Source: Thermoplasmatota archaeon (GTDB taxonomy: Archaea; Thermoplasmatota; E2; UBA202; JdFR-43). Taken from it: 64,000 nt of DNA. The position numbers and the translations under genes are program-made. Shown one piece after another: positions 1 to 13,565 of the stretch. Numbering within the stretch: the stretch's first letter is position 1; each line of letters begins with the position of its first letter. The notes below the pieces were generated by a model. It ran no database searches. It saw only the letters and a list, made by a program, of their open reading frames with translations, and had not been told where the DNA came from. The stretch lies in assembly GCA_038818725.1 (NCBI GenBank), contig JAWAYL010000002.1, positions 1,346 to 65,345 on the forward strand. Direction: 5' to 3'.

Positions 1-979
1 TAAAAAATGGAAGGAAAATTAAAATTGAAATTAGGGCATTTCTTAAATTGTTTAATTTCTTTAAAGGCAATGAAGGTGGATTAAAAGTTGCTGGACGATT
101 TGCAAGAATTTTTCTTATATAAAAAAATAGAAAGAGAGGAAGAAGAATATTGTAAAATATAATTATATGGAATATTGAGAATTTAAGTCCAATTACACTA
201 ACAGCGGGCAACATCGCTACAGTCGCAAGTGGCAGCATAAAACCAAGAGAATATATTATTAGAGTTGGTTGATGAAGCTTATTTGAGAAATCAATCATTA
301 AATCTCTTGTTCCTTCAAGAACAATATCCAGCGATCTATCAAGTGTTGAAATCCTATTTTCTTCTTTTTCCTTTACAGAATTTCTTATTAAATGAATTGC
401 TCTCTTAAAATATTCACTCCATTCCCCCCACAAATTTGAAAAATATGTTATTGCATCATCTATGCTTTTATGTATTCTTATCTCTAAATCCCATATAATT
501 TTTCTTAAATCTTTTGCAAGCGAAGTATTTGATTCTTTTGCTGCAAAATAAAAAGCTCTTTCAAGATTTGGAACAAGCTTAAGATACATTACTAAATAGG
601 ATATTACTTCTGGAATGTCCCCGAGGGAGCGAGCTTTCATATATTTTGCCTTTATCTTAGGATATTCACTTATATAATGCAATGAAAGAAGAGGAAAAAT
701 AAATAAAAGAATAATTATTAGAAAAATTGTTAAGAAACCCATATTTTTAATTGAAAAATCATAAATTGCAAAAATTGATATTGAAATAAAAATTGCAATT
801 AAAAAAGAAATTAGAGCGCAAATGTAAGAAAAATATATTATTTCATATGGTTCAAGCTCCGTTCCAATAAAATGCAAGCTATCAATAAATTCTTTTGAAA
901 CTTTTTTATTTATTTTTTCCTTATCCTCTTCCCTTATTTTTAATTTTCCAACAATTTTTTTACAAAAAATTTCAAACAT
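1..979 (-). CDS. Type IV pilus/archaellum assembly membrane protein (FlaJ/TadC, T2SS-F family), partial (runs off window start)
   Basis: Not in the ORF track because it is open to position 1. My manual translation of the minus strand from the ATG at 979-977 gives MFEIFCKKIVGKLKIREEDKEK...SLGFMLPLATVAMLPAVSVIGLKFSIFHIIIF..., with multiple predicted TM helices. The start overlaps the stop of the upstream ATPase by 8 nt (ATGTTTGA), the classic ATPase plus platform-protein pairing. Confidence 0.55.
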   Translation of the reverse strand, partial: MFEIFCKKIVGKLKIREEDKEKINKKVSKEFIDSLHFIGTELEPYEIIYFSYICALISFLIAIFISISIFAIYDFSIKNMGFLTIFLIIILLFIFPLLSLHYISEYPKIKAKYMKARSLGDIPEVISYLVMYLKLVPNLERAFYFAAKESNTSLAKDLRKIIWDLEIRIHKSIDDAITYFSNLWGEWSEYFKRAIHLIRNSVKEKEENRISTLDRSLDIVLEGTRDLMIDFSNKLHQPTLIIYSLGFMLPLATVAMLPAVSVIGLKFSIFHIIIFYNILLPLFLFFYIRKILANRPATFNPPSLPLKKLNNLRNALISILIFLPFF

Positions 980-3062
980 ATTTATTCAACCATTCATTCC
1001 ATTTTTCCTCAATTTCACGAAAATCTTTAGTTTCCTCAAGAATCGACCAATAGAAATTGTTTGCATCCCTCACAAATTTTGCATCTGTTCTTCCAATTTC
1101 AACAATTTTTTCTTTCATTCTCGCCCTCATCTTTATATTTTCTATTGCTTCTTCCATGCTTATTCCCCATTTCCTAGCTATTTTCCCTATTATCTCTGAT
1201 TGCCCCATATAAAATAAATCTGTTGCTTCAAGAATATCTTTTGAATAATCATATCTCATTATATCTGAAAAAATTTTATCAACATCTTCTTTTTCCCAAA
1301 TCTTACTTACTTCAGATATTTGAATAACCCTTCTTATTCTTTCAATTCCTCCTCTCGCTCTTATAGGTGATGCAATAACAACTATATCTGTTGCTTTAAA
1401 AGAAACCGGTGCGACGCCTATATCATAAACAATTCTATCAAAAACATCCCTCGATGTTGAGCCATGAATTGTTCCCATAACTAAGTTGCCAGCTGCCCCT
1501 ATTCTCATTGCTTCAAATAAAATTTTTGCCTCCTCACCACGAACTTCTCCCAAAATAATAACTGATTCTCCAAGCCTTAAAGCAGTTTTTATCGCTGTTT
1601 TTTCATCTATTCCTTCACTGCTTATAGCTGATTTCGTAACCAGTGATTGAATTTTATAACCTAATCTCTGGAGTTCATCTACTGGTAGCTCAGGAGTATC
1701 TTCTATAGTAAGAATTCTATATCTCTGGGGTATTTCAAGCATTAGTGAAGAAAGCAAGGATGTTTTACCAGCTCCTCTTGAGCCAGCAATTAAAATTGTT
1801 GCCTGCCCATCAACAAAAAAACTCAGCAAGCCAGCAGCAAGCGGAGATAGCATTTTACATGAAATAAATTTTGGAAGTGTCCATAATTCGGATGCATGCC
1901 TTCTTATTGCAAATGCTATTCCTTTTGGTGTTAGTGGCGGGGAAATTGCCGTAATGCGCGAGCCATATTGGGGGAGACCAACATCCATCACTGGAATTGC
2001 CTCTGAAAAACCTCTCCCACTTAAGCTTCTCAGACGAGATGATAATGCTTCAATGTCATTTTCTGAAAAATATATGTTTGTTACATATTCTTCTCCATCA
2101 AGAATTATATGAAGAGGGTTATAGGTTACAGGAGCATTTATATAAATATCCTGTATTTTTTTATCAGCAAGTAAATCTTCTAATATTCCAAATCCTGAAG
2201 TATATTTTGCAAAAACATCAGCCAAAAAGTCTATTCTCTCGCTACTAATTTTATATTTAATATTTTCTGCTATTTCCATTATTTTTTCCTTTCCAAATCT
2301 ATAAAAATATTCTCTTGCTCTTTCCGTATCGATAAATGAAATATCAGTTGGCCTGTGTTTTGCAAGTTTTTCCTTTGCTTTAATAAGTATTTTAAGCTCT
2401 TCAAGGCTTAAATTATATTCAGGAGGTATTATAAAATACAATTTTTCAGCTCTTCTCTTCAGTTCATATAAAGAAACTTTTATACTGCTTCTTTCCTTTT
2501 TTATTTCATAACTTTTAATAAAAACTGCATCATTTGGAGGATTGTATTCAATTGAAGTATCGAAAAATATTGGCCTAACATAAATTCTTATATCTTCATA
2601 AGAGATGTGTTTTATCTTTTCAAAATTTTTTATTATATCTGATATTCTTTTTAAATTTTCGTTTCTGCAATAGTTACATTCTTCTTTTCTTAAAACAAAA
2701 GGCTTTTTAAATTTAAATGCTATATCTAAAAATTTATAAAAAGATTTTATCTGGTCTTTTTTACTTAAATCTATTGCGGATTTTATTTCTTTATTCAATA
2801 TGCAATCTTCGCAATTTAATTTAATAGATGATATTTCCTCCATAAATTTTGAAATTTCAATAAGATTTTCTAAAGCTTCTCCTTCTATTATCTTTACAAA
2901 ATAATGGCTCAATCTTATTCTATCGATTTTTCCTTCTTTTTCAATTATTTCAAGAATCTCTTTTCTGCAATTTTCATCTATAAGTGAAGAAGAATATTTA
3001 CATGAATAGCAATCTATTTCAATTACACTCGCTCCCCCTTCTTTAACAATCCTATAACTCAT
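972..3062 (-). CDS. FlaI/GspE/VirB11-family secretion/pilus ATPase with ~340-aa Cys-containing N-terminal extension
   Basis: 696 aa. Walker A LIAGSRGAGKTSLLSSLMLEI, a Walker B/Asp box region and a His box are typical of GspE/FlaI ATPases. The N-terminal 340 aa carry CxxC pairs (CYSC, CEDC, CNYC). Confidence 0.8.
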   Translation of the reverse strand: MSYRIVKEGGASVIEIDCYSCKYSSSLIDENCRKEILEIIEKEGKIDRIRLSHYFVKIIEGEALENLIEISKFMEEISSIKLNCEDCILNKEIKSAIDLSKKDQIKSFYKFLDIAFKFKKPFVLRKEECNYCRNENLKRISDIIKNFEKIKHISYEDIRIYVRPIFFDTSIEYNPPNDAVFIKSYEIKKERSSIKVSLYELKRRAEKLYFIIPPEYNLSLEELKILIKAKEKLAKHRPTDISFIDTERAREYFYRFGKEKIMEIAENIKYKISSERIDFLADVFAKYTSGFGILEDLLADKKIQDIYINAPVTYNPLHIILDGEEYVTNIYFSENDIEALSSRLRSLSGRGFSEAIPVMDVGLPQYGSRITAISPPLTPKGIAFAIRRHASELWTLPKFISCKMLSPLAAGLLSFFVDGQATILIAGSRGAGKTSLLSSLMLEIPQRYRILTIEDTPELPVDELQRLGYKIQSLVTKSAISSEGIDEKTAIKTALRLGESVIILGEVRGEEAKILFEAMRIGAAGNLVMGTIHGSTSRDVFDRIVYDIGVAPVSFKATDIVVIASPIRARGGIERIRRVIQISEVSKIWEKEDVDKIFSDIMRYDYSKDILEATDLFYMGQSEIIGKIARKWGISMEEAIENIKMRARMKEKIVEIGRTDAKFVRDANNFYWSILEETKDFREIEEKWNEWLNKYV

Positions 3063-3097
3063 TCAAAAATTTAATTTATTATTCAAATATATATTTT

Positions 3098-4321
3098 ATG
3101 GATAAAAAATACATACTTGGAAGAAAAGATTCCGATGAAAAATCTGTTCTGAATATAGGAAAATATTATGCATTGGATGGCTCGCTTGGAGCTCCAGTAT
3201 TTTTAGACATTTCAAAGCCCCATATAGTTTTTATTTGTGGAAAGAGAGGATATGGAAAATCCTATACCATTGGAGTTTTTCTTGAAGAATTTTACTCACT
3301 TGAAGAAGAAATAAGAAAAAACATTTCTTTTATTGTTGCCGATACTCTTGGAATTTTCTGGACAAGCATTTTTCCAAATAAAAGAGAGATTGAAAGCTTA
3401 AAAAGATGGGGAATTGATGCAAGTGGTATAGAAATTGAGATTTTTTCATCTCCTGAATTAGTTAGCTATTATAGAAAATTTGGAATAAAAGCAAATGAAA
3501 TTTCAATAGCAACTTCTTATCTTAAAACATTTCACTGGTGCAGACTTTTTGGTATCTCTCCTAACTCTATGGAAGGAATTGCAATATCAAGAGCAATATG
3601 GGAAATGGAAGGAAAATATGATATAGATGACATAATAGAGAAAATAAGAGATGATGAAGAAATAAGCAATGAAACAAAGCTTGCCTGCATAAATTTTTTT
3701 GTTATGGCAAAAAATTTGAAAATATTTGCAAAAGAGGGAATAAATTTATCAGATATAGCAAAAAGAGGGAAAATATCGGTAATTGATTTAAGTTCTTATG
3801 ATGAAAGTATAAAAGAAGTAATTTTAAGCATTTTAGGAGAAATTATTTTTTATGAAAGAATTATTGAAAGAAAAAAAGATGAAGAAAGGGAAATAGGATT
3901 TTCAAAAGCAGAGCAAAATTTGCCTTTCATATGGCTTGTAATAGATGAAGCACATATTTTTCTCTCAAAAGAGGATAGAATAACAAAAGATGTTTTTATA
4001 AAGAAATGGCTCCGCCAGGGGCGCCAGCCTGGCCTAAGCCTAATTTTAGCGACTCAAAGAGCAAGCTCAATGGACAGTGAAGTAGTGGCTCATGCAGATA
4101 TAATTATCTGCCACCGCCTCACTTCGCAAGAGGATATAGATGCAATGAATAATGTTAGACCAACTTACATGAGAGAAAGCATAGGGGAGGCAATTAAAAA
4201 AATGGGGAGTGAGAAAGGGGTTGCTTTAATAATAGATGATGTGACCGAAGTTAGTCATTTAGTGAAGATTAGGCCGAGGAAAAGCTGGCATGGAGGAGGA
4301 GAGCCAAGCATAGCTATTTAG
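3098..4321 (+). CDS. HerA/FtsK-superfamily P-loop ATPase (DUF87-like)
   Basis: P-loop FICGKRGYGKSYT, Walker B LVIDEAHIF, and the FtsK/HerA-type ILATQRASSMD motif with conserved Q. Confidence 0.5.
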   Translation: MDKKYILGRKDSDEKSVLNIGKYYALDGSLGAPVFLDISKPHIVFICGKRGYGKSYTIGVFLEEFYSLEEEIRKNISFIVADTLGIFWTSIFPNKREIESLKRWGIDASGIEIEIFSSPELVSYYRKFGIKANEISIATSYLKTFHWCRLFGISPNSMEGIAISRAIWEMEGKYDIDDIIEKIRDDEEISNETKLACINFFVMAKNLKIFAKEGINLSDIAKRGKISVIDLSSYDESIKEVILSILGEIIFYERIIERKKDEEREIGFSKAEQNLPFIWLVIDEAHIFLSKEDRITKDVFIKKWLRQGRQPGLSLILATQRASSMDSEVVAHADIIICHRLTSQEDIDAMNNVRPTYMRESIGEAIKKMGSEKGVALIIDDVTEVSHLVKIRPRKSWHGGGEPSIAI

Positions 4322-4372: not shown

Positions 4373-5146
4373 ATGAACCCACTTATGCCAGTAAAGGGGA
4401 AAATAATTGAAAAAAGAAAAATAAATGATAAAAAATTTTTGAGAATCGAGGCAGAAAACTTTAATTTTATTCCAGGACAATTTGTAGAGATATCTCTTGC
4501 TGGAATTGGAGAATTTCCAATATCGATATGCTCCCCACCCTATGAAAAAAATTTTTTTGAAATTTGCATAAGAAAAGTTGGAAGAGCAACTTCTTTCTTC
4601 TATAATATAGATGAAATTGATTATGTTTTTTATAGAGGGCCGTATGGAAATGGCTTTCCAATGGAAAAACTGAAAGGGAAAAATATTGTCGCAATCATAG
4701 GAGGGCTTGGTATACTGCCATTAAGAAGTTTTATAAAAGAAGCTATTCATTCAAAAATTTATAATCAGATAAAAATTCTTTATGGAGCGAGGAGCAAGGA
4801 CGAAATTATATTTCCAGAAGAAATTGAAGAATGGAAAAAGCATGCTGAGGTATATGAAATTTTTGAAAAAGAAGGAGAAAAAAGAGGTTTTGTAACTGAA
4901 TTATTAAATGATATAGTTTTTGATGGGGACGAATATCTTCTTATATGTGGTCCGCCTGCAATGTTTAAGCCAGTTATAGAAAAAGCTATAAAAAGAGGAG
5001 CAAATGAAGAAAATATATATTTGTCTGTTGAAAGAAGAATGAAATGTGGCATTGGAAAATGTGGGCATTGTATTGTTGGAAGCTATTATGCATGCATTGA
5101 TGGTCCTGTTTTTGAGTATGTTAAATATAAGCATGCTATTTTATAG
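4373..5146 (+). CDS. PyrK/NfnA/HydG-family FAD/NAD(P)-binding oxidoreductase subunit with C-terminal [2Fe-2S] motif
   Basis: 257 aa. A ferredoxin-reductase-like fold (RGPYGNGF, GGLGILP) and a C-terminal CGIGKCGHC...C cluster motif, as in sulfide dehydrogenase beta / NfnA / hydrogenase gamma. First gene of a 6-gene translationally coupled operon. Confidence 0.7.
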   Translation: MNPLMPVKGKIIEKRKINDKKFLRIEAENFNFIPGQFVEISLAGIGEFPISICSPPYEKNFFEICIRKVGRATSFFYNIDEIDYVFYRGPYGNGFPMEKLKGKNIVAIIGGLGILPLRSFIKEAIHSKIYNQIKILYGARSKDEIIFPEEIEEWKKHAEVYEIFEKEGEKRGFVTELLNDIVFDGDEYLLICGPPAMFKPVIEKAIKRGANEENIYLSVERRMKCGIGKCGHCIVGSYYACIDGPVFEYVKYKHAIL

Positions 5147-5167: not shown

Positions 5168-5638
5168 ATGATAATTATTTCAGCAATGCTTGTATATAAA
5201 CAATTTCCAGTTTCGATAAATCAAGAAAAATGCTCAAAATGCAGAATATGTGTCTCAATATGTGATTGTTTTTCTTATGATAAAGAAAGGAGCATTATTT
5301 TATTAAATAATATTTCCTGCAAGGGCTGCGGGGTTTGCACCGCTTCCTGCCCTTCTTCTGCTATATCGCATATCCAAGATGATTCGTTTTTTTATTTCTC
5401 TGAAAAAAAGGAGGTAAATGAGCTTGAATGTGAAAAATGTCTTTATGAATTTGTTGAAAGAGAAGATTCAGTAATTTTTTGTGATAGAAGATTTGATATT
5501 GGAATTGCTATTAAAAAATTTTGCGAAGGAAAGAGAATAGAAGTAAAGAAGTGCATTTTTTCAGACAAGCTAGTAGAAAATGAAAAATTCAGAAAATTTT
5601 CAAAAATTGTTCATCTGTTTGGTGTAGAAAATGATTGA
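5168..5638 (+). CDS. 2x[4Fe-4S] ferredoxin-like protein
   Basis: Motifs CSKCRICVSICDC and CKGCGVCTASCP. Its stop overlaps the next gene start (5631/5638). Confidence 0.6.
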   Translation: MIIISAMLVYKQFPVSINQEKCSKCRICVSICDCFSYDKERSIILLNNISCKGCGVCTASCPSSAISHIQDDSFFYFSEKKEVNELECEKCLYEFVEREDSVIFCDRRFDIGIAIKKFCEGKRIEVKKCIFSDKLVENEKFRKFSKIVHLFGVEND

Positions 5639-6689
5639 AGATATAATAACGAGAAGCAAAGCATATTATTGCGTTGAATGCAGGAAATGTAGTTCTGCAT
5701 GTCCAGTTACAAGAGTTTATGGAAAATTTTCTCCAGCAAGTATGGTAGAACACTCTCTGATTGGCATAGAAGATGAAATAATTTATTCATATGATATATG
5801 GAAATGCCTCACTTGTGGAATTTGTGAGAAGATATGCCCCTCTGGTGTGGATTTTTTAAGCTTTATAAAAGAAATAAGAGAAATTGCAAGAGAAAATAAA
5901 AATTTTGGAATCTCAGCACATGAAAATATTTTTGAAGAAGTAGCTTGCTTATTTGGAAAAAATGATATATTTTTAGAAATGAATGATGTAGAGATAGATG
6001 ACAAATCAAAAATTCTCTATTTTGCGGGCTGTTTGCCAATATATGATGTATTTTTTGATAGCATCGGATTCAATGGCATTGCTATTGCAAAAAATACAAT
6101 TAAGATTTTGAATTATTTTGATATAGTTCCATCTGTAATATTTTCATGCTGTGGGCACGATGCTTTATGGAGTGGAAATAAAGGAATTTTTGAAAAAATG
6201 AAAAGAAAAAATATGGAAAAAATTAAAAATTTTGAAAAAATAATATTTTCCTGCCCTGAATGCTACAGAACTTTTAAATTTGATTATAAAGCAAATGTTG
6301 AAATGATGCATATTTCAGAATTCCTTGCAAAAAAAGATTTTGAAGAGAATTTAAATAAAATTTGTACAATTCATGATTCGTGCAGGCTCGGCCGCCATTT
6401 GGGAATTTATGATGAGCCAAGAGAAGCTCTTAAAAAAATTGGATGTGAAATAAAGGAAATGGAGCATTCTCGCGAAGCCTCGATCTGCTGCTCTACTTCT
6501 GCATGGATGGCATGCGACTGGATGGCGGAACAGTTAAGAAAAGAAAGGCTTGCTGAAGCGGAAGAGCAGGCAAATTTGCTCATCACTACTTGCCATAAAT
6601 GCAAAATTCATTTCTTATGCACAATGAGTCATGAAAAATATAATATCGAAGTAAAGGATTTGGTTGAAGTTATTGGAGAGGCCATATGA
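5631..6689 (+). CDS. hdrD: HdrD-like heterodisulfide reductase subunit (HdrC ferredoxin domain fused to HdrB CCG domains)
   Basis: N-terminal CVECRKCSSACP and CLTCGICEKICP (HdrC-like). The C-terminal half has two CCG-type Cys-rich motifs (FSCCGHDALW...CPEC and DSCRLGRH...ICCSTSA...CHKC), as in HdrB/HdrD. No HdrE-like membrane subunit is present. Confidence 0.75.
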   Translation: MIEDIITRSKAYYCVECRKCSSACPVTRVYGKFSPASMVEHSLIGIEDEIIYSYDIWKCLTCGICEKICPSGVDFLSFIKEIREIARENKNFGISAHENIFEEVACLFGKNDIFLEMNDVEIDDKSKILYFAGCLPIYDVFFDSIGFNGIAIAKNTIKILNYFDIVPSVIFSCCGHDALWSGNKGIFEKMKRKNMEKIKNFEKIIFSCPECYRTFKFDYKANVEMMHISEFLAKKDFEENLNKICTIHDSCRLGRHLGIYDEPREALKKIGCEIKEMEHSREASICCSTSAWMACDWMAEQLRKERLAEAEEQANLLITTCHKCKIHFLCTMSHEKYNIEVKDLVEVIGEAI

Positions 6690-7960
6690 AGAATGTGCTT
6701 ATAATAGGAGGAGGCGTTGCTGGAATACAGGCGGCGCTTGACCTTGCGGATCAAGGCATACATGTTTATTTAGTTGAAAAAGAGCCAAGCATCGGCGGAA
6801 GAATGGCTTTGCTTGATAAAACAATGTCAACAAATGATTGCAGTATATGCATTCTTGCCCCTAAAATGAATGAATGCGCATCTCATCCAAATATAGAAAT
6901 TCTTGAATATTCTGAAGTTATTGGGCTTGAGGGAAATGCTGGAAATTTTAAGGTTAAAGTTAAAAGAAAGGCAAAATATGTTGATTCAAGCAAATGCACT
7001 GGATGTGGTGATTGCATGGAAAAATGTCCTACTGAAGTTCCAAATGAATACAATAGCTATATCGATAAAAGGAAGGCAATTTTTCTTCCATTTCCTCAAT
7101 CGGTTCCAAGAAAGGCAACAATTGATAAAAGATATTGCTTGAAATTGAATAAAAATAGATGCGGTCTTTGCCAGAAAATATGCAAGGCAAAGGCGATAGA
7201 TTATAGCCAAGAAGATAAGATAATTGAGCTTGATGCCGCCTCAATAATAGTTGCAACAGGTTTAGAAGTATATAATCCATATGATATTAAAGAATATGGT
7301 TATGGAAAATTTGCAAATGTGCATAGTTGGATTGAATATGAAAGGCTTATAAATGCATCTGGTCCAACTCATGGACATTTAAAATGTGCTCCAGATGGAA
7401 GAAGACCCAAGAGAATTGCATTTATTCAATGCGTTGGCTCTAGAGATGTTAAAAGATGCGAATGGTGCTCTTCTGTCTGCTGTATGGTTTCAATAAAAAG
7501 TGCAATGCTTGCAAACGAGCATTACAATGATATCGAATCCTTCATATTTTATTCAGATTTAAGAGTTTTCAGTAAAAGATTTTATGAATATAGCAAAAGA
7601 GGAGAAAAAGATTACAAAATTACTTACATACATGCTCGTCCAGGAGAAATAAAAGAAGATAGGCATACAAAAAATCTGATAATATATTATGAAGATGAAA
7701 AGGAAGGAAAAGTAAAAGAGCTTGAAGTAGAGATGGTTATTCTTGCAACTCCAATAATGCCTTCAAAAAGCAATCTCGAAATTTCAAAAATTCTTGAAAT
7801 AGAGCTTGATAAATATGGATTTATAAAAACAAATGAAGTTGAAACAACAAGAAAAGGCATATATGCTGCTGGTTGCTGTTGCTCGCCGAAAGACATAACT
7901 GAAAGCGTTTATCAGGCAAGCGCTGCCGCATGCAGGGCAGCGGAGTGGTGCCATGCCTAG
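6686..7960 (+). CDS. hdrA: HdrA-like flavoprotein paralog (FAD/TrxR-like domain plus inserted ferredoxin domain; lacks HdrA N- and C-terminal domains)
   Basis: GxGxxG motif MKNVLIIGGGVAGIQAALDLA, inserted 2x[4Fe-4S] motifs CTGCGDCMEKCP and CGLCQKICKA, and a CSSVCCMVS motif. 424 aa, much shorter than the canonical ~650 aa. Confidence 0.75.
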   Translation: MKNVLIIGGGVAGIQAALDLADQGIHVYLVEKEPSIGGRMALLDKTMSTNDCSICILAPKMNECASHPNIEILEYSEVIGLEGNAGNFKVKVKRKAKYVDSSKCTGCGDCMEKCPTEVPNEYNSYIDKRKAIFLPFPQSVPRKATIDKRYCLKLNKNRCGLCQKICKAKAIDYSQEDKIIELDAASIIVATGLEVYNPYDIKEYGYGKFANVHSWIEYERLINASGPTHGHLKCAPDGRRPKRIAFIQCVGSRDVKRCEWCSSVCCMVSIKSAMLANEHYNDIESFIFYSDLRVFSKRFYEYSKRGEKDYKITYIHARPGEIKEDRHTKNLIIYYEDEKEGKVKELEVEMVILATPIMPSKSNLEISKILEIELDKYGFIKTNEVETTRKGIYAAGCCCSPKDITESVYQASAAACRAAEWCHA

Positions 7961-9626
7961 AATAGGAGTTTTTATCTGCGACTGTGGAACAAATATAGCT
8001 GGCTTTTTAGATGTGCCTGCGGTATGTGAATATGCAAAAAGTTTGCCTGATGTAGTTTATGTAAAGGAAAATATGTATACTTGTTCAAATGCAGGCTTGC
8101 AAGAGATAATGAATGCAATTAAAGAGTATAATCTTGATAGAGTTGTTGTTGCATCATGCACGCCACGAACTCATGAACCACTTTTCAGAAAAGCATGTGA
8201 AATGGCTGGACTAAATAAATTTTTATTTGAATTTGTGAATATACGCGACCAATGCTCATGGGTCCATCAAAAAGAAAGAGAAAAAGCTACAGAAAAAGCA
8301 AAAGATTTGGTAAGAATGGGAGTTGCAAAAGCTCGCCTTCTTGAGCCTCTTGAGGAGATAAAAATAAGTGTGGAAAGAGCATGCCTTATTATAGGAGGTG
8401 GAATTTCTGGTTTAACCTCAGCTATTGCACTCGCAAAAAAAGGCATAGAGGTACATTTAGTGGAAAAAGATGAAAAGCTTGGAGGGATTTTAAACAATAT
8501 TTACAGAGTTTATCCAGATGATGAGGAGGCAATTGAAATTTTAGAGGATATTATTGAAGAAGTTAAAAAATATAAAAATATAAATATATATCTATCAAGC
8601 GAGGTGGAGAAAGTAGATGGATATATAGGGAATTTTAATGTAAAAATAAAAGGAAAAATAAATAAGGAGATAAAAGTAGGAACAATAATTGTTGCAATAG
8701 GAGCAAAACCATATCAACCAGCATACATGTATAACTATCAGGAATATGAAAATATAATAACTCAGATTGAGCTTGAAGAAATGCTTAAAGAAAATAAAAT
8801 AAAAGGAAAGAATTTTGTCTTTATTCAATGTGTTGGAGGAAGGGGAGAAAGGGTGAGATATTGCTCAAGAATATGTTGCATGAATTCAATAAAAAATGCA
8901 AGAATAATAAAGAAATTAATTCCTGATTCAAATGTTTATATAATTCATAAGGGCTTGCAGACATATGGAGTTAAATATGAAGAATATGTAAGGAAGGCAA
9001 GAGAGGAAGGTGTTAGATTTATAAGAGTAAGAGATGAAATTCCAACAGTTTCATCAATTGAAAGAAAAGATGGAAGAATTGTTGTTGGGTTCTATCATCC
9101 TGGACTAAGAAGAAAGATTGAATTGCCCGCAGATTTAGTAATTCTTTCAACACCTCTCGTAGAAAGTGAAGATGCAAAAAGAATATCTCAAATGCTAAAA
9201 GTTCCTCTTGGGCTGGATGGCTTTTTCTTTGAGGCGCATGTAAAGTTGCGCCCCGTAGATTTTGCAACAGATGGTATTTATATGTGTGGTTCATGCAGGG
9301 CGCCCGCAAGCATTGAGGAAGCAAAAATTCAAGCTTTAGCTGCTGCTGGAAGAGCATTAATTCCTATGGCAAATGGTTTTGTTAAAGTTGAGCCATATAC
9401 ACCATATATTGATGAGGAAAAATGCAGGGCTTGTGGGATGTGTGTTGAAGTATGTCCTTATGGAGCAATGAGGATTGTTGAAAAAAATGGTAAAAAAGTG
9501 GCGGAAAACATACAAGCAGCTTGTAAAGGATGTGGAGCTTGCTCTTCTTCCTGCATTCACAAGGCAATTGATATGAGGCATTTCAGTGATAAACAAATAA
9601 TTGCTGAAATAGAGGTGATAGATTGA
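7953..9626 (+). CDS. hdrA: HdrA heterodisulfide reductase subunit A (N-terminal 4-Cys domain + FAD domain + C-terminal 2x[4Fe-4S] ferredoxin; no inserted ferredoxin)
   Basis: N-terminus PRIGVFICDCGTNIAG...VASCTPRTHE; FAD motif CLIIGGGISGLTSAIALA; YCSRICCMNS; C-terminus CRACGMCVEVCP and CKGCGACSSSCIH. Overlaps the neighbouring genes by 8 nt (start) and 4 nt (stop). Confidence 0.8.
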   Translation: MPRIGVFICDCGTNIAGFLDVPAVCEYAKSLPDVVYVKENMYTCSNAGLQEIMNAIKEYNLDRVVVASCTPRTHEPLFRKACEMAGLNKFLFEFVNIRDQCSWVHQKEREKATEKAKDLVRMGVAKARLLEPLEEIKISVERACLIIGGGISGLTSAIALAKKGIEVHLVEKDEKLGGILNNIYRVYPDDEEAIEILEDIIEEVKKYKNINIYLSSEVEKVDGYIGNFNVKIKGKINKEIKVGTIIVAIGAKPYQPAYMYNYQEYENIITQIELEEMLKENKIKGKNFVFIQCVGGRGERVRYCSRICCMNSIKNARIIKKLIPDSNVYIIHKGLQTYGVKYEEYVRKAREEGVRFIRVRDEIPTVSSIERKDGRIVVGFYHPGLRRKIELPADLVILSTPLVESEDAKRISQMLKVPLGLDGFFFEAHVKLRPVDFATDGIYMCGSCRAPASIEEAKIQALAAAGRALIPMANGFVKVEPYTPYIDEEKCRACGMCVEVCPYGAMRIVEKNGKKVAENIQAACKGCGACSSSCIHKAIDMRHFSDKQIIAEIEVID

Positions 9627-12625
9627 AAATACTTGGCTTGCTTTGCAACTGGTGCAGTTATGCAGGAGCGGATTTAGCTGGCGTTAGTAGATTTCAATAT
9701 CCTCCAAGCATAAGAGTTGTTCGTGTGATGTGTTCAACAAGAGTTGAGCCATCTTTTATTATTAAAGCATTTTTAAAAGGAGTTGATGGTGTTCTTGTGG
9801 GCGGATGCCATCTTGGAGATTGCCACTATGTTACTGGAAATTACTATACCATAGGCAAGATTTATGTTGCAAAAAAATTGCTTAAATTTGCTGGAATTAA
9901 TCCCTCTCGTTTAAGACTGGAGTGGATTTCTGCAAGTGAAGGAGAAAAATTTGCAAGAGTTGTTGAAGAATTTACAAGAGAAATTGAAGAGCTAGGCCCT
10001 TTAAAAGATGAGCTAAAAGATGATAATATGCTTAAAGTTGCATATAATGTCGCTAATAAGCCAAGAGCAAGAATAATTGCTTCAAAGCATAGAATGCTTA
10101 CATTTTTTGGAAATAAATATAACGAAATATATACCAATTATGAATTTGATAGGATAAGTGATGAAATTTTAAAAGATGAAATGATTACAGAAGCAATAAA
10201 ATTTTTATTAAAGGATGAAAAAAATTTTGAGGAAATTGCTGAAAGAATTGGAGTTAATGGAAAAACCTTATATTTTTACCTTCTTGATTTGATAAAAAAG
10301 GGAGAAATATCATTTAGAGAAGAAAATGGGAAATATCTGTTTTTTGTAGCAGATAAAAAGGAGGAAAAAATTGAGACATTTATACCAAATTCAATCATAA
10401 GCAAGGAGGCGCATCTAATATTTGGAGCAGGCGCAAAAGGAATAAACAGAGCAATTGAAATAGCAAGAAAAGGGGAAAATGTTGTTATTGTTGAAAGATT
10501 TCCTTCAATAAATAAATATATTATAAGAAAGCATGCCTCCTCTTTTGAAAATGAATGTAAATATGAGGAATTTTTAAATTTAGTAAAAGAAGGAAAAATA
10601 ACTGTTTTAAATAATTCAATTGTAAAAAGCATAAGAGATGGAATTGTAAGAATAATAAAATATCCATCTCGTATAAATGAAAATTGCAATAACTGCAATA
10701 TATGCTATGAAGTTTGCCCTCTTAAAACAGTTGATAGAGAGCAAACTCTTTTTTCAAGAAAGGCAGTTTATGGAAGAAACGGCATTCCATGCACCTTCTT
10801 TTTGGAGAGAGAAAGCCCGTTTTGCCAGACAAATTGTCCAGCACATGTAGATGTTCGTGGGTATGTAGCGAGAATTGCTGAAGGAGATTTTGAAGGAGCA
10901 ATAAATGTTATAAGGCAAAGATTGCCATTACCTGGTGTGCTTGGAAGAGTATGTCCCCATCCTTGCGAAGAGTTTTGCAGAAGAAACGGGATTGATGAGG
11001 CAATTTCAATAAGACTACTAAAGAGATTTGTCGCTGACTGGGAATGGCAAAACAAGGGAATAATTTATCTTGGAAAAATGCCAGTAAATGAGAATAATAA
11101 GCGTAGGGTTGCTATAATTGGCTCTGGTCCTGCTGGCTTAACTGTTGCATATGAACTCGCCAGAATTGGCTACAAAGTTAAAATTTTTGAAGCATTACCT
11201 GTTGCCGGCGGGATGCTTGCTGTTGGCATACCTCCTTATAGGCTTCCAAAAGATGTGCTTGCTAGAGAAATAAATGCGATTCTTGAAATGGGGGTTGAAT
11301 TGCAGTTGAATTGCAAGGTAGGAAAGGATATATCTTTTGATGAGGTGAGAAAAAATTTTGATGCGGTATTTATTGGAATTGGTGCACATAAAAGCAGGAA
11401 AATGGGAATTGAAGGAGAAAATTTGCGGGGTGTTATATCAGGTATTGATTTTTTAAGAGAAGTAAATATATATCCCGAAAATGTAAGAGCAATTATTTCT
11501 GGAAAGAAAGTAGTTGTTGTTGGCGGTGGAGATGTTGCAATAGATGCAGCAAGATGCGCAATAAGATTTGGATGCGATGTAACAATTTTATATAGACGAA
11601 GCAGGGATGAAATGCCAGCTCGTGAAGAGGAAATAAGATATGCAGAGGAGGAAGGGGTTAATTTTCGCTTTCTGGCAGCTCCATTAAAAATTATTGGGAA
11701 AGGAAGCGTTGAAAAAATCGAATGTATAGAAATGGAGCCTGGTGAGCCAGATGAAAGTGGGCGCAGGAGGCCTGTGCCGAAAAAAGGAAGCGAATTCTTC
11801 ATTGAAGCAGATGTTGTTATCTCTGCAATTGGCCAGCAACCTGATTTATCATTTTTACCAGATGAAATAAAAAAAGATGGATTAATTGTTGTTGATGAAA
11901 ATACTGGGGCAACTTCTTTGCCAGGAGTTTTTGCAGGAGGAGATGTAGTAAGTGGCCCTTCAATAGTAATAGAAGCGGTTGCATGGGGAAGAAGGGTTGC
12001 TAGAGCAATAGATGCATATTTAAATGGCAAAAAAATAGAATTTGATCCTATTGAAAGAGATATAAATAGGGCAATTGCAAGTTATGAAGATGTTGAACTA
12101 ATGAAAAGAAATGTTGTTTTATCAATTTTTAAAAAAGAAAATAGGAAAAATATTGAAGAAATAAGCATCGATGAAAGATTAACAACATTTAAGGAAGTTG
12201 AAAAGGGTTTTGATAAAAAAACAGCAATAAGTGAGGCTTCTCGCTGCCTTGCCTGTAGGGCTTGCCTTGGCTGTGGGATATGTGGAAATGAATGCATTAG
12301 AAATGCTATTGATTATGAAGAAAAGGAGGAGGAGATTGAAATATTTGCAAAATCAATAGAAATTGATCCAGAAATAAAATTTAATTATGAATTTTTCACT
12401 CCTTTTGAAATTGAAGATATGCTCCAGCTAGGAATAATTATGAATTTTAAAGGAGAAAAAATAAAGAAGATATGCTTTTTAAATTTTGAGGAAAACAAAT
12501 ACTTCAATGAATTAAAGAAAAAAATTTTAGAAAATGGAATAGAAATTGGCGAATCAGATTTTAAAGTAGATTTCCGCTTTTATGAAACAGATTATTATAA
12601 AAAAATTAAAAAAATGGCTAGCTAA
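9623..12625 (+). CDS. Fusion protein: MvhD (N-terminus) - linker/possible wHTH - GltD/NfnB-like NADPH:FAD oxidoreductase with 4Fe-4S domains - ~120-aa C-terminal tail
   Basis: Residues 1-130 (MKILGLLCNWCSYAGADLAGVS...GGCHLGDCHYVTGNYY) match MvhD. Residues ~330-900 match the GltD/NfnB family: CPAHVDVRGY...RVCPHPCEEFCRR, RVAIIGSGPAGLTVAYELA, VVVVGGGDVAIDAARCAIRFG. A 4Fe-4S motif CLACRACLGCGICGNEC lies near the C-terminus. 1000 aa. Confidence 0.75.
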   Translation: MKILGLLCNWCSYAGADLAGVSRFQYPPSIRVVRVMCSTRVEPSFIIKAFLKGVDGVLVGGCHLGDCHYVTGNYYTIGKIYVAKKLLKFAGINPSRLRLEWISASEGEKFARVVEEFTREIEELGPLKDELKDDNMLKVAYNVANKPRARIIASKHRMLTFFGNKYNEIYTNYEFDRISDEILKDEMITEAIKFLLKDEKNFEEIAERIGVNGKTLYFYLLDLIKKGEISFREENGKYLFFVADKKEEKIETFIPNSIISKEAHLIFGAGAKGINRAIEIARKGENVVIVERFPSINKYIIRKHASSFENECKYEEFLNLVKEGKITVLNNSIVKSIRDGIVRIIKYPSRINENCNNCNICYEVCPLKTVDREQTLFSRKAVYGRNGIPCTFFLERESPFCQTNCPAHVDVRGYVARIAEGDFEGAINVIRQRLPLPGVLGRVCPHPCEEFCRRNGIDEAISIRLLKRFVADWEWQNKGIIYLGKMPVNENNKRRVAIIGSGPAGLTVAYELARIGYKVKIFEALPVAGGMLAVGIPPYRLPKDVLAREINAILEMGVELQLNCKVGKDISFDEVRKNFDAVFIGIGAHKSRKMGIEGENLRGVISGIDFLREVNIYPENVRAIISGKKVVVVGGGDVAIDAARCAIRFGCDVTILYRRSRDEMPAREEEIRYAEEEGVNFRFLAAPLKIIGKGSVEKIECIEMEPGEPDESGRRRPVPKKGSEFFIEADVVISAIGQQPDLSFLPDEIKKDGLIVVDENTGATSLPGVFAGGDVVSGPSIVIEAVAWGRRVARAIDAYLNGKKIEFDPIERDINRAIASYEDVELMKRNVVLSIFKKENRKNIEEISIDERLTTFKEVEKGFDKKTAISEASRCLACRACLGCGICGNECIRNAIDYEEKEEEIEIFAKSIEIDPEIKFNYEFFTPFEIEDMLQLGIIMNFKGEKIKKICFLNFEENKYFNELKKKILENGIEIGESDFKVDFRFYETDYYKKIKKMAS

Positions 12626-13565
12626 TTTCTCCCGCCCAATATGGCTTCCTCACATATTCATATATCTTTTGAGATGCTATTGCTCCATGCGCTGCGCCAA
12701 CAATAAGCAGGCGGAAAGCGCCTCGCACTATATCTCCAACCGCAAAAATTCCCTCAACATTTGTGCGCTGCATTGCATCAGTTATTATATAACCTTTTTC
12801 ATCTGTTTTTATTCCAAGCTCAGCAAACATTTCTGTATTTGGTTTTAATCCAACTGCAAGAACTACTTTATCTACCTTGAGTGTTTTTCTTTCTCCTGTT
12901 TTGTTGTTGAAAATAACTGCTTCCTCAACTTTATCTTTTCCTCTTATTTCTTCAAGCTCTGTATTCAACAATATATTTATCTTACTTTCCTCCATTTTCT
13001 TTACATTTTCATCTAAAGCCCTGAATCTATCTCTCCTATGGATTATTGTTATTTCTTTAGCAAGATCAACTAAATCAAGGGCTGCATCAACAGCGGTATC
13101 TCCTCCTCCAACAATGAGAACCTTGCTATCTATAAAATCTTCTCTATGAGTAACATAGTAATAAACACCCTTATCTCCTTTATTGAATTTACTTTCTCCT
13201 TCTATACCAAGTTCCTGAGGGCGTGTTCCAGTTGCTATAACAATTGTCTTACCATGATATTCATTCTCTTCTGTTTTCACAACTCCTCCTTTTTCTATTT
13301 TAATGACTCTTTCTCTTACCATTTTAATATATGGACTTTCTCTTGCTTGCTTTATCCATTTTCTTACAAGTTCAATTCCAGTTATTCCTTCTGGAAAGCC
13401 AGGATAATTTGGTATTACCTTGCTTGGATATAGTGTTGCTGGCAAACCACCCCATTTTCCTCCTTCAAGTATAAGTGTTTTAAGCATTCTACTTGCACAC
13501 ATGATAGCAGTTGTCAATCCAGCTGGTCCGCCTCCAACAACTATAACATCATACATTTCTTCCAT
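12618..13565 (-). CDS. Thioredoxin reductase-like flavoprotein (TrxB/FNR family) lacking the redox-active CxxC
   Basis: MYDVIVVGGGPAGLTTAI and a second nucleotide-binding motif KVLIVGGGDTAVDAALDL. No CxxC motif anywhere, so possibly a YumC-type ferredoxin:NADP reductase. Convergent with the hdr/mvhD operon, overlapping it by 8 nt. Confidence 0.65.
   Translation of the reverse strand: MEEMYDVIVVGGGPAGLTTAIMCASRMLKTLILEGGKWGGLPATLYPSKVIPNYPGFPEGITGIELVRKWIKQARESPYIKMVRERVIKIEKGGVVKTEENEYHGKTIVIATGTRPQELGIEGESKFNKGDKGVYYYVTHREDFIDSKVLIVGGGDTAVDAALDLVDLAKEITIIHRRDRFRALDENVKKMEESKINILLNTELEEIRGKDKVEEAVIFNNKTGERKTLKVDKVVLAVGLKPNTEMFAELGIKTDEKGYIITDAMQRTNVEGIFAVGDIVRGAFRLLIVGAAHGAIASQKIYEYVRKPYWAGEIS

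Follow-up and report, generated by a model that had tools for sequence, protein, structure and literature searches.

A conserved MvhD–HdrA–NfnL fusion protein of Thermoplasmatota archaea as a candidate NADPH-coupling subunit of a soluble Hdr-type complex

The stretch of DNA analyzed here (the window, 64,000 nucleotides of a Thermoplasmatota archaeon) encodes, in one uninterrupted frame at 9623–12625 of the + strand, a fusion protein of 1000 aa. As judged from its sequence, this protein is composed of a long MvhD, a truncated HdrA scaffold, and an NfnL-like cassette inserted into the scaffold. We propose, with moderate confidence, that it acts as the NADPH-coupling subunit of a soluble Hdr-type bifurcating or confurcating complex, the rest of which is encoded by the five upstream genes; most likely, it would be an NADPH entry or exit subunit wired via MvhD to two HdrA paralogs and an HdrCB-like subunit. 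An earlier note on this DNA had described a covalent fusion of MvhD with an NfnB/GltD-type flavoprotein. Domain matches and orthologs bear this out, the gene adjoins hdrA genes, and the NAD(P)H-to-HdrA link that the note offered as its role is still the most economical reading. The fusion is a rare new arrangement of parts that are known together from HdrL and type III HdrA, and not a new kind of system. The frame and its parts are located as follows.

9612–9619, + strand: Shine–Dalgarno-like sequence GAGGTGAT, 3–5 nt 5′ of the TTG start, read directly from the sequence
9623–10012, + strand: complete MvhD (FlpD), predicted [2Fe-2S] carrier, residues 1–130 (Pfam PF02662, 5odc_D)
10013–10405, + strand: helical linker, winged helix and spacer, residues 131–261
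10406–10810, + strand: N-terminal part of the HdrA TrxR-type domain with the first Cys motif, residues 262–396 (hhalign, phmmer)
10811–12037, + strand: NfnL/GltD-type flavoprotein core, residues 397–805 (Pfam, PDB matches, conservation)
12038–12262, + strand: residues 806–880, comprising a connector (806–852, low confidence) and the displaced N-terminal piece of Fer4_20 (~853–882) (Pfam, PDB alignment)
12263–12328, + strand: second Cys motif of the split HdrA-type inserted ferredoxin, residues 881–902 (hhalign, weak phmmer)
12329–12625, + strand: degenerate remnant of the HdrA middle alpha/beta subdomain, residues 903–1000 and the stop codon (hhalign, ANME-1-type alignment, motifs)

The start was assigned to the TTG at 9623, the earliest start codon past the in-frame stop. 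It shares 4 nt (TTGA, 9623–9626) with the gene upstream, the hdrA that encodes HdrAb, whose stop codon it overlaps; this suggests translational coupling of the two genes. Gene overlaps of the same kind (1–4 nt) occur in three other genomes (L001, L002, and L005), in which the boundary between hdrA and the fusion gene is also unchanged. The domain order from N- to C-terminus is preserved in 15 full-length ortholog clusters (57–89% identity), and an additional partial entry of 933 aa is 100% identical along its length. The 1000-aa fusion is real and conserved, and is no frameshift artefact. Long mvhD and the next hdrA-like gene are separate ORFs in many other lineages, as would be expected if an assembly or sequencing error had merged an mvhD with a gltD-like gene. 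Nevertheless, the probability of such an error, which the earlier note had named as the event that would undo the fusion, is negligible: the unbroken frame is present in the 15 independent clusters, from varied samples and sources, and at four sequenced loci, and the linker joining the parts is conserved and predicted to fold. With frame and gene boundary recurring in orthologs and loci, we ruled the artefact out. The exact fusion junction is rare (about 6 of 1.84 billion cluster representatives). A profile search of genome contigs yielded chiefly stand-alone MvhD genes among the matches listed, so the fused architecture is under-sampled in that search.

The assignment of the N-terminus as MvhD, on which the earlier note had made the fusion depend, is firm. 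Residues 3–125 matched the Pfam family FlpD/MvhD (PF02662) with 172.4 bits (cut-off 22.3) over profile positions 1–123 of 123, and the MvhD part matched the solved MvhD chain 5odc_D with an E-value of 1.4e-49. All 19 of the 19 orthologs compared share, without exception, the predicted ligands of the [2Fe-2S] cluster (Cys8, 11, 37, 62, and 67). The extension that follows (residues 131–261) is also carried by stand-alone "long MvhD" proteins of 250–275 aa. Its linker (131–171) is helical and conserved, and R148, R150, K155, N164, Y166, E168, E174, D185, and E186 are invariant across the linker and the winged helix, while residues 172–245 form a generic winged-helix fold, net acidic and poorly conserved. 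We considered whether the protein could be a redox-sensing regulator, in which the winged helix would bind DNA and the Fe-S and flavin domains would sense NAD(P)H or the redox state, and found this very improbable. The winged helix is the least conserved folded part (51% identity within Thermoplasmatota, 21% to Halobacteriota), the net charge of residues 195–245, counted from the sequence, is about −1, that is, not basic, and every match of the region to Pfam HTH families fell below the cut-offs. Furthermore, in other lineages the same extension is found on long MvhD proteins wedged between HdrA genes, which fits the role of a structural connector. We know of no regulator of such size or composition.

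The additional segments reported earlier (~131–396 and ~806–1000, with a last Cys-rich motif at C875–C891) are present as described, but most of them could be identified by profile comparison. The earlier suggestion that the middle and C-terminal regions are unrecognized regulatory or docking modules is not supported; they correspond instead to two halves of an HdrA fragment, a piece of the NfnB Fe-S domain, and the generic winged helix. The first HdrA half (residues 262–396) contains a Rossmann beta-alpha-beta unit with an invariant G268-x-G270-x-x-G273 and the first CxxCxxCxxxCP motif of the HdrA "inserted ferredoxin" domain (C355, C358, C361, and C365). Residues 262–389 aligned with residues 2–141 of HdrAa, one of the HdrA paralogs of the operon (hhalign probability 99.2%, E 9e-20), and residues 262–396 matched the HdrA chains 8rvv_A, 8rvu_a, and 5odc_A in phmmer (E 9e-6 to 4e-5). 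The second motif, C881-xx-C884-xx-C887-xxx-C891, has four invariant Cys, and residues 884–954 aligned with HdrAa 159–248 (hhalign probability 97.6%, E 3e-12); the HdrA profile used in hhalign was shallow (3 sequences). In phmmer, the region of the second motif gave weak matches to HdrA 292–321 (E 0.007–0.02), and the C-terminal 140 residues alone gave marginal HdrA matches in the PDB (E 0.02–0.15), which is why the profile–profile comparison was needed for this region. Both halves are collinear with HdrAa, and the gap between them falls exactly between the two inserted-ferredoxin motifs, with the NfnL-like block inside.

Residues 903–1000 can be aligned with ANME-1-type relatives (P0035, P0036, and P0040), and AlphaFold2 predicts for them an alpha/beta unit with a pLDDT of about 80–89. 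In a motif comparison, three elements kept in both HdrAa and HdrAb were missing from the scaffold of the fusion, namely the CVGSRD...C..CC [4Fe-4S] motif, the C-terminal FAD motif, and the catalytic Lys. The protein ends about 45 residues past the "IAFIQ"-equivalent position; beyond C891 it has no further conserved Cys, and the Lys and a GD-type motif are likewise absent. The absence of these three elements led us to reject a second bifurcating flavin site in the HdrA remnant, as suggested for ANME-1. The invariant GxGxxG hints that the stub may still bind a nucleotide, and the invariant E929, in an "FE.E" segment, may be the counterpart of HdrA E356, which together with K409 is a key residue for bifurcation in HdrA (PMC12054007).

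In the cassette, Pfam recognizes Fer4_20 at 397–477 (profile positions 28–111) and Pyr_redox_2 at 495–787, and residues 401–803 matched NfnB/NfnL and GltD chains with E-values of 1e-104 to 1e-71. The Fer4_20 part contains C401, C405, C444, C448, and C452; the FAD Rossmann fold is represented by G500-x-G502-x-x-G505, and the NAD(P)H Rossmann fold by G634-x-G636-x-x-A639 together with Y657-R-R-S-R661. All orthologs have GxGxxA and YRRSR, which are of the NADPH type, and a minority of homologs have an acidic residue instead; on the basis of these motifs only, the cassette is predicted to be specific for NADPH. The N-terminal piece of Fer4_20 (FKEVEKGF..EASRC875LAC878) comes after the flavoprotein core and not before it. 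This displaced piece matched positions 2–31 of the Fer4_20 profile (E 8e-5) and aligned with the N-termini of 5jca_L (11–47) and 4ylf_B (3–44), as well as with 9n5u_A 556–597 and 9bov_A 530–570; both Cys of this piece, C875 and C878, are invariant. In a Foldseek search with the whole protein, the NfnL core outweighed everything else, so that nothing was learned about the flanking parts.

The closest PDB matches were 9n5u_A (462 bits), 9bov_A, and 8oh5_C, ahead of 4ylf_B (354 bits) and 5jca_L (346 bits), which in turn preceded GltD. Lys467, predicted to serve the FAD-proximal [4Fe-4S] cluster as its fourth ligand, occupies the alignment position of the ligating Lys in NfnA/StnC and of Glu in NfnL ("LERF" in 4ylf_B and 5jca_L). 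It is invariant in the orthologs, and among 188 homologs this position is Lys in 184 and Glu in none. In NfnA/StnC, the proximal cluster has this Lys ligand and its FAD is a non-bifurcating NADPH site (PMC10482914, PMC12018979). The label of NfnB/GltD type given in the earlier note thus describes the kind of flavoprotein correctly, but neither bifurcating NfnB nor GltD is as close to the cassette as the non-bifurcating StnC/NfnA(Bfu) module.

The five genes upstream of the fusion gene are the following.

4373–5146, + strand: PyrK/HydG/ShyC/AsrB-type FAD-[2Fe-2S] NAD(P)H oxidoreductase subunit, FlxA-like, 257 aa (Pfam NAD_binding_1, DHODB_Fe-S_bind)
5168–5638, + strand: ferredoxin akin to the HdrA C-terminal ferredoxin domain, 156 aa (NCBIfam HdrA2 positions 566–626; Pfam Fer4_10)
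5631–6689, + strand: HdrC–HdrB fusion, HdrD-like, 352 aa (Pfam CCG in two stretches, Fer4_8)
6686–7960, + strand: hdrA paralog, HdrAa, 424 aa (NCBIfam HdrA2 positions 140–558, 505 bits; motifs)
7953–9626, + strand: hdrA paralog, HdrAb, 557 aa (NCBIfam HdrA2 positions 1–232 and 325–649; Pfam; motifs)

This six-gene operon is shared with other Thermoplasmatota MAGs and is identical in L001, L002, and L005. The PyrK-like gene at its head, 4.5 kb 5′ of the fusion gene, provides a second nucleotide-binding module and is kept in the same three genomes; its product scored 243 bits with NCBIfam PRK08345 (HydG/ShyC/AsrB type), under the cut-off of 395, and 88 bits with PRK06222 (a sulfide/DHOD-like model; cut-off 220). 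The HdrC–HdrB fusion, with a 2×[4Fe-4S] ferredoxin domain and two CCG domains, is the predicted (di)sulfide-type substrate site; it matched the NCBIfam models for TfrB, HdrC, and DsrK-like proteins, in all cases below the cut-offs. HdrAa consists of the TrxR-type FAD domain with the inserted ferredoxin only, and has neither the N-terminal domain nor a ferredoxin domain at its C-terminus. In HdrAb, an N-terminal Fe-S domain precedes a TrxR-type FAD domain that has no inserted ferredoxin, and the chain ends in a 2×[4Fe-4S] ferredoxin domain, which is the MvhD-contacting domain in 5ODC-type complexes. The boundary between HdrAb and the fusion protein coincides exactly with the HdrA/MvhD junction of the HdrA2 model (position 649), and in P0020, P0122, and P0124 HdrAb itself is fused N-terminally to this architecture. 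Among the operon genes, Pfam and NCBIfam detected no hydrogenase, formate dehydrogenase, NuoF/NuoE-like NfnB or NfnC, or GltB-like gene, and no FlxB homolog was identified.

These features allowed us to place the fusion among known systems. The cassette shares with NfnB/NfnL (of NfnAB/NfnSL) and GltD the architecture of Fer4_20 plus two Rossmann domains for FAD and NADPH, and is 42–45% identical to NfnL. In contrast to these proteins, its Fe-S domain is split around the core, the proximal-cluster ligand is Lys where NfnL has Glu, and no gltB and no clear NfnS-type partner adjoins the gene. The scores missed the equivalog cut-offs of TIGR01316 (419 vs. 471.75), TIGR01317 (230 vs. 447.7), and TIGR01318 (340 vs. 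483). We rejected a glutamate synthase and a bona fide NfnB on the strength of these curated cut-offs, of Lys in place of Glu, and of the neighboring genes. The top matches (462–385 bits) were the Bfu-type NfnA of Thermococcus sibiricus (9N5U) and Caldicellulosiruptor (9BOV) and StnC of Sporomusa ovata (8OH5), which also resemble the cassette in fold (Foldseek E 1e-46 to 1e-41), in the Lys ligand of the proximal [4Fe-4S] cluster, and in having the piece of the NfnL N-terminus after the flavoprotein core. Their host protein is HydA/NuoG-like, whereas the host here derives from HdrA and MvhD. Membership of the Bfu family was discarded, as there are no HydA/NuoG-like or NuoF/NuoE-like parts and the matches are limited to residues 399–907. 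The MvhD part is a full-length FlpD with conserved Cys, as in HdrABC–MvhAGD and HdrA2-type HdrA::MvhD proteins, and likewise follows an hdrA that ends in the MvhD-contacting ferredoxin domain; it differs from the MvhD of HdrABC–MvhAGD in its extension of roughly 130 aa and in its partner, which is a covalently attached NADPH flavoprotein and not a hydrogenase. In the FlxABCD–HdrABC system of Desulfovibrio and others, a pyridine-nucleotide dehydrogenase passes electrons through the MvhD-like FlxD to HdrA. The concept is the same and the operon contains an FlxA/HydG-like gene, but the module attached to MvhD is here of the NfnL type and not of the FlxA type.

The nearest relatives are HdrA proteins with an inserted GltD/NfnB-like domain and MvhD encoded beside them or fused, namely HdrL (PMC2702500), HdrA9–11 of ANME-1 (PMC9012536), and "type III HdrA" (PMC12054007). 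A link from NAD(P)H to Hdr was proposed in these same studies, and HdrL, MvhD, and HdrABC were detected together in one proteome (PMC5947623); the novelty implied by the earlier note is, accordingly, not sustained. In HdrL (Desulfobacterium autotrophicum and Syntrophobacter fumaroxidans), type III HdrA, and HdrA9–11, as in the fusion, the cassette lies between the two inserted-ferredoxin Cys motifs. These proteins also share with it the Lys-type proximal cluster, the association with MvhD and HdrBC-type genes, and the proposed role. In the protein described here, however, the HdrA part is a stub without the TrxR-domain [4Fe-4S] motif, catalytic Lys, C-terminal FAD motif, N-terminal domain, and C-terminal ferredoxin domain; MvhD and the winged helix are N-terminal, while MvhD is elsewhere a separate gene or a C-terminal domain; and the functional HdrA flavin sites are on two separate upstream paralogs.

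In the role that we favor, NADPH would reduce the cassette FAD, which would act as a two-electron to one-electron converter and not as the site of bifurcation, as expected from its StnC/NfnA(Bfu) type and from the Lys ligand of the proximal cluster. Single electrons would then move to the two Fer4_20 clusters, the two split-ferredoxin clusters, and the [2Fe-2S] cluster of MvhD; we infer this sequence of NfnL clusters, split ferredoxin, and MvhD from domain order only. MvhD would dock on the C-terminal ferredoxin domain of HdrAb, its expected partner, like MvhD in HdrABC–MvhAGD, and the electrons would arrive at the bifurcating FAD that the HdrAa/HdrAb pair provides. From there, a high-potential branch would lead to a disulfide-type acceptor at the HdrCB-like CCG subunit, and a low-potential branch to ferredoxin. 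The NfnL cassette would thereby take over from the MvhAG hydrogenase as the partner of MvhD, and the reaction may equally go backwards, forming NADPH. A single "NADPH in" scheme is incomplete, since the operon contains a second NAD(P)H module, the PyrK/HydG-like subunit.

In HdrABC–MvhAGD, the inserted ferredoxin domain, which the cassette interrupts here, is the ferredoxin-reducing, low-potential exit (PMC9012536). Since the canonical domain is an exit and not an entry, the cassette could sit on the exit branch. The complex would then be an Hdr-type transhydrogenase with NADP+ as acceptor or NADPH as donor at the low-potential exit of HdrA; NAD(P)H at the PyrK/HydG-like subunit would feed in electrons via the 156-aa ferredoxin, and the driving force would be the reduction of a disulfide at HdrCB. 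We regard this wiring as unlikely, although several observations agree with it. The inserted ferredoxin is absent from HdrAb and present, without a flavin site, in the HdrA-derived scaffold of the fusion, which would supply this domain in trans; a PyrK-like gene and a ferredoxin like the HdrA C-terminal domain stand at the head of the conserved operon; and in NfnSL an NfnL-type protein is naturally paired with a PyrK-like one. However, by its scores the PyrK-like protein belongs with HydG/AsrB and not with NfnS (88 bits with PRK06222), and its gene is present in related HdrA clusters without an NfnL cassette and missing at the Halobacteriota ortholog locus. In addition, the Lys-type cluster goes with mid-potential wiring in Stn and NfnABC, and the exit position leaves no clear role for the covalent tie between MvhD and the cassette.

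Less probable still is that the protein is a self-contained Nfn-like enzyme or NADPH:ferredoxin oxidoreductase, independent of its Hdr neighbors, for which the MvhD and HdrA parts would be extra wiring or scaffold. The NfnL-like block is complete and shows 78–82% identity among orthologs, against 47–64% for the HdrA remnants, and five Fe-S clusters together with one FAD would be enough for NADPH:ferredoxin oxidoreductase activity. Such independence is difficult to reconcile with the gene order, as synteny with two hdrA genes and hdrCB is tight and translationally coupled in four of the four Thermoplasmatota genomes checked, or with the fusion of some relatives to HdrAb. Moreover, we know of no role of MvhD other than that of an electron carrier docking on HdrA, and Nfn-type bifurcation is disfavored by the Lys-type, non-bifurcating flavin.

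Electron bifurcation by Hdr-type enzymes has a central place in anaerobic energy conservation, and ideas on how Hdr is fed in organisms that have no Mvh hydrogenase, CoM, and CoB are still for the most part guesses. An NAD(P)H–Hdr link through HdrL or type III HdrA has been proposed since 2009 and, to our knowledge, none of these proteins has been purified. The roles are cleanly separated in the present system, with an NADPH flavoprotein and MvhD on one chain with a degenerate HdrA, and the presumed bifurcating flavins on two intact HdrA paralogs. This makes it a comparatively simple construct for asking whether NfnL-type delivery occurs via MvhD and which flavin bifurcates. The Lys-ligated StnC/NfnA type, found in 184 of the 188 HdrA-embedded cassettes, ties together two families that are usually treated apart. 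The practical impact is modest, as this refines an existing hypothesis and opens no new field. A bolder and rather doubtful reading is that the operon represents an uncharacterized soluble Hdr class of non-methanogenic Thermoplasmatota, in which a circularly rearranged, Lys-type NfnL "NADPH plug" replaces the hydrogenase on MvhD; this would be the cassette that was also grafted, independently, into Bfu-type NfnA/StnC. If this were true, the complex, together with the PyrK/HydG-like module, would couple NADPH, NAD(H), ferredoxin, and thiol/disulfide, providing a third, Hdr-based route of electron-bifurcating transhydrogenation, and the cassette would be a mobile module common to two otherwise unrelated families of bifurcating enzymes.

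The six-gene operon studied here, together with the gene that follows it, comprises these features:

4373–5146: PyrK/HydG/ShyC/AsrB/FlxA-like FAD-[2Fe-2S] NAD(P)H protein, at the head of the operon
5168–5638: 156-aa ferredoxin resembling the HdrA C-terminal ferredoxin domain (best NCBIfam match, HdrA2 model 566–626)
5631–6689: HdrC-HdrB fusion with two CCG domains
6686–7960: HdrAa (424 aa), with the flavin domain and inserted ferredoxin only
7953–9626: HdrAb, with the N-terminal domain, a flavin domain without inserted ferredoxin, plus a ferredoxin domain at the C-terminus
9623–12625, + strand: the fusion protein, 1000 uninterrupted codons as read from the sequence
12618–13565, − strand: thioredoxin-reductase-like protein, convergent with the fusion gene (TIGR01292, 259 bits; cut-off 343)

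The fusion gene starts at TTG 9623, the first start after the preceding in-frame stop, with the Shine-Dalgarno sequence GAGGTGAT ahead of it at 9612–9619, and this start shares 4 nt with the upstream gene's TGA. Searching 5.8 billion proteins retrieved 15 full-length ortholog clusters from Thermoplasmatota MAGs (57–89% identity, 997–1037 aa), a partial 933-aa entry with 100% identity across its own length, and three Halobacteriota clusters with 44–45% identity. The order of the parts was identical in all the ortholog clusters found in both groups, and the Thermoplasmatota loci L001, L002 and L005 keep the six-gene operon with the same hdrA–fusion boundary (overlap of 1–4 nt). The earlier note had considered that a sequencing frameshift might have joined two separate genes; the 15 full-length clusters with their constant part order and the three loci with the same frame and boundary rule this out.

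The presence of an MvhD part and an NfnB/GltD-type part in one 1000-aa ORF, as first proposed, was confirmed at both ends by Pfam and by solved chains. Residues 3–125 form a complete FlpD/MvhD domain (172 bits, entire profile), and the solved MvhD chain 5odc_D matches the N-terminus with an E-value of 1e-49. Residues 397–477 correspond to Fer4_20 and 495–787 to Pyr_redox_2, with weak Pfam matches only elsewhere, and solved NfnB/NfnL, GltD and DPD chains match the flavoprotein part. In contrast, the view that the middle and C-terminal regions match nothing recognisable did not hold, since profiles assign residues 262–389 and 884–954 to HdrA and 853–882 to Fer4_20.

Profile comparison aligned residues 262–389 with HdrAa 2–141 (99.2% probability, E = 9e-20), and as a single sequence this region matched the HdrA chains 8rvv_A, 8rvu_a and 5odc_A at about 115–276 (E = 9e-6 to 4e-5). 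From these alignments, the region is assigned to the Rossmann beta-alpha-beta start of the HdrA thioredoxin-reductase-type domain, with invariant G268-x-G270-x-x-G273, plus the first CxxCxxCxxxCP motif of the HdrA inserted ferredoxin (C355, C358, C361, C365). Residues 884–954 aligned with HdrAa 159–248 (97.6% probability, E = 3e-12) and are assigned to this ferredoxin's second Cys motif (C881, C884, C887 and C891, all invariant) and the 'FE.E..L...G....DG..PK.IAFI' segment; the ANME-1-type relatives P0035, P0036 and P0040 align with the same HdrA correspondence in this C-terminal part. Because the two regions match the two halves found in HdrAa, the flavoprotein block sits between the halves of the HdrA inserted-ferredoxin domain. 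Residues 955–1000 are a confident alpha/beta continuation that contains neither Cys nor any motif that could be recognised.

The HdrA part stops about 150 residues early relative to the upstream paralogs. Both HdrAa and HdrAb retain the 'IQCVGSRD...C..CC..SIK' cluster-and-Lys motif and the C-terminal flavin motif ('GIYAAGCC' or 'GIYMCGSC'), whereas a motif comparison with them found neither in the fusion protein. K409 and E356 have been named as residues required for HdrA bifurcation (PMC12054007); the only possible counterpart left is the invariant E929, for E356. The HdrA part of this protein was therefore rejected as the seat of a second bifurcating flavin, as the cluster motif, the Lys and the C-terminal flavin motif are all missing.

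The flavoprotein cassette itself is rearranged relative to stand-alone NfnL. Residues 397–477 cover Fer4_20 profile positions 28–111, and positions 2–31 are matched by residues 853–882 ('FKEVEKGF..EASRCLAC'; E = 8e-5), which also align with the N-termini of NfnL (5jca_L 11–47, 4ylf_B 3–44). As the residues just ahead of 397 are HdrA-derived, the N-terminal piece of NfnL's Fe-S domain occurs only after the flavoprotein core. The individual E-values for this displaced piece are modest (8e-5 to 0.09); R874, C875 and C878 are invariant, which strengthens its assignment. The trailing piece (window 12179–12268) aligns as well with the Bfu-type NfnA chains 9n5u_A (556–597) and 9bov_A (530–570), so that the NfnA module appears to have the same arrangement, suggesting that the HdrA-embedded cassette and Bfu-type NfnA share one circularly rearranged module. 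The text of the Stn paper mentions neither 'permut' nor 'inserted'.

The best solved relatives of the cassette were likewise the NfnL-like modules of Bfu-type NfnA (9n5u_A, 462 bits; 9bov_A) and StnC (8oh5_C), with NfnL (354 and 346 bits) next, then GltD (244 bits). When the residues are aligned, 'LLK467RF' falls on the Lys that ligates the FAD-proximal [4Fe-4S] cluster in NfnA and StnC; bifurcating NfnL has Glu ('LERF') at this position. The structural papers on NfnA and StnC describe this FAD as the non-bifurcating NADP(H) site and the Lys as strictly conserved (PMC10482914, PMC12018979). K467 is invariant across the orthologs, and among 188 homologous NfnL-like blocks drawn from P0021–P0268, mostly within HdrA-like proteins, the position is occupied by Lys in 184, His in three, Arg in one and Glu in none. 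The second Rossmann motif, G634-x-G636-x-x-A639, followed by Y657-R-R-S-R661, is invariant in the orthologs and, by the rule in PMC12054007 and general knowledge of Rossmann folds, points to NADPH as the nucleotide. An acidic residue (LE, VE or IE) replaces R658-R659 in 17 of the 188 blocks, and for this reason these proteins, a minority within the HdrL type, probably depend on NADH instead of NADPH.

The concept of an NAD(P)H-linked MvhD/HdrA fusion is not new. While the fusion proposed in the earlier note is real, HdrL was the name given in 2009 to HdrA–GltD fusions with a following mvhD (PMC2702500), and in Syntrophobacter HdrL is expressed together with HdrABC and MvhD (PMC5947623). Chadwick et al. 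described the NfnB insertion inside the inserted ferredoxin of ANME-1 HdrA9-11 (PMC9012536), and type III HdrA, a class set up in 2025 for the same kind of fusion, was remarked to be without biochemistry (PMC12054007); in both, the cassette lies between the inserted-ferredoxin halves exactly as here. Asgard and TACK archaea commonly have HdrA-HdrA-MvhD fusions. What is new is the arrangement: the N-terminal MvhD with a winged-helix connector, the HdrA host cut down to a ferredoxin-bearing stub, and the recognition of the cassette as the Lys-type, rearranged module common to StnC and Bfu-type NfnA.

This architecture is rare. Among 1.84 billion 50%-cluster representatives, only about six clusters spanned the whole junction (residues 100–420), and each half alone was far commoner than the joined form. 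Among the matches listed, equivalent loci in Bathyarchaeia, Asgard archaea, Methanomassiliicoccus, Methanoperedens, Chloroflexi and some Proteobacteria read [HdrAa-HdrAb] – long MvhD – [HdrAa-HdrAb fused, no NfnL] – short MvhD, where long MvhD (250–275 aa) is MvhD plus the same helical/winged-helix extension as in the fusion protein. No description of this extension was found in the literature compared here. Given this gene order, the fusion protein corresponds to a long MvhD joined to the next gene's first HdrA module, which has gained the NfnL cassette and is missing its distal part. The other order is seen in many proteins of 1400–1700 aa from Asgard archaea and bacteria, [HdrA::NfnL]-[HdrA]-(MvhD), and in P0020, P0122 and P0124 HdrAb is fused to the N-terminus of the present architecture. 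Stand-alone long MvhD is widespread among the matches listed (L006–L034, L044 and L047; for example, L010 7983–8759 and L016 4992–5786).

The HdrAb–fusion boundary falls at the point where HdrA meets MvhD in the HdrA2 model (position 649). Domain loss in HdrAa and HdrAb is complementary, in keeping with the proposal of an obligate HdrA heterodimer in ANME and Moorella (PMC9012536), and in the Halobacteriota relative a single 998-aa protein (L003 6005–9001) combines their equivalents. The 156-aa ferredoxin may supply in trans the C-terminal domain missing from HdrAa. Since the first gene of the operon encodes a PyrK-type NAD(P)H protein, there are two pyridine-nucleotide modules in the complex; PyrK-like genes also occur near long-MvhD/HdrA clusters without an NfnL cassette (L016, L029, L044). 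The thioredoxin-reductase-like gene overlaps the 3' end of the fusion gene by 8 nt, an arrangement that L001 and L002 share and L005 lacks, and could relate to a thiol substrate of the complex.

Directly upstream of the operon, a divergent pair (972–4321) encodes a T2SSE/FlaI-like ATPase (−) and a HerA/DUF87 helicase-like protein (+), and in L001 the operon has this pair beside it too. The upstream neighbours of the Halobacteriota ortholog (L003 1–5994) are a Mpt_N + AlaDh_PNT_C gene similar to NADP-type methylene-H4MPT dehydrogenase, one NuoF-like gene and one FrhB-like gene, consistent with a link to NADPH or F420. The sampled genes of the window (SNF transporter, CitF, aconitase-like protein, enolase, CDC48, histidine kinase, Glu/Gln-tRNA synthetase) are ordinary for a heterotrophic archaeon and include no methanogenesis markers. 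The gene for CitF, the citrate lyase alpha subunit, directly adjoins an aconitase-family gene (22044–24751). At E ≤ 1e-5, Pfam gave nothing for two large ORFs, 24744–26471 (−, 575 aa) and 40058–41728 (−, 556 aa).

Domain composition, conserved ligands, synteny and family relationships are established here; the wiring of the complex is a proposal. The main rival reading, rather unlikely, is an Hdr-based transhydrogenase in which the scaffold of the fusion protein would supply in trans the inserted ferredoxin missing from HdrAb; NADP(H) would then belong to the exit branch, and the PyrK-like module would be the second nucleotide site. In its favor, the inserted ferredoxin domain is the low-potential exit of HdrA, and HdrAb lacks this domain. 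Further down in likelihood come, in this order, a stand-alone NADPH:ferredoxin reductase, a redox-sensing regulator and an artefact.

We slightly favor an NADPH cassette that feeds HdrA bifurcation via MvhD. NADPH would reduce the NfnL-type FAD, and electrons would pass through the two Fer4_20 clusters and the two split-ferredoxin clusters to the MvhD [2Fe-2S] cluster. MvhD would dock on the C-terminal ferredoxin domain of HdrAb, as in HdrABC-MvhAGD, and the HdrA flavin would then split the electrons between ferredoxin and the CCG subunit with its predicted disulfide-type substrate; all these steps may equally run backwards. In this wiring, the place of the hydrogenase as the partner of MvhD would be taken by the NfnL-type cassette.
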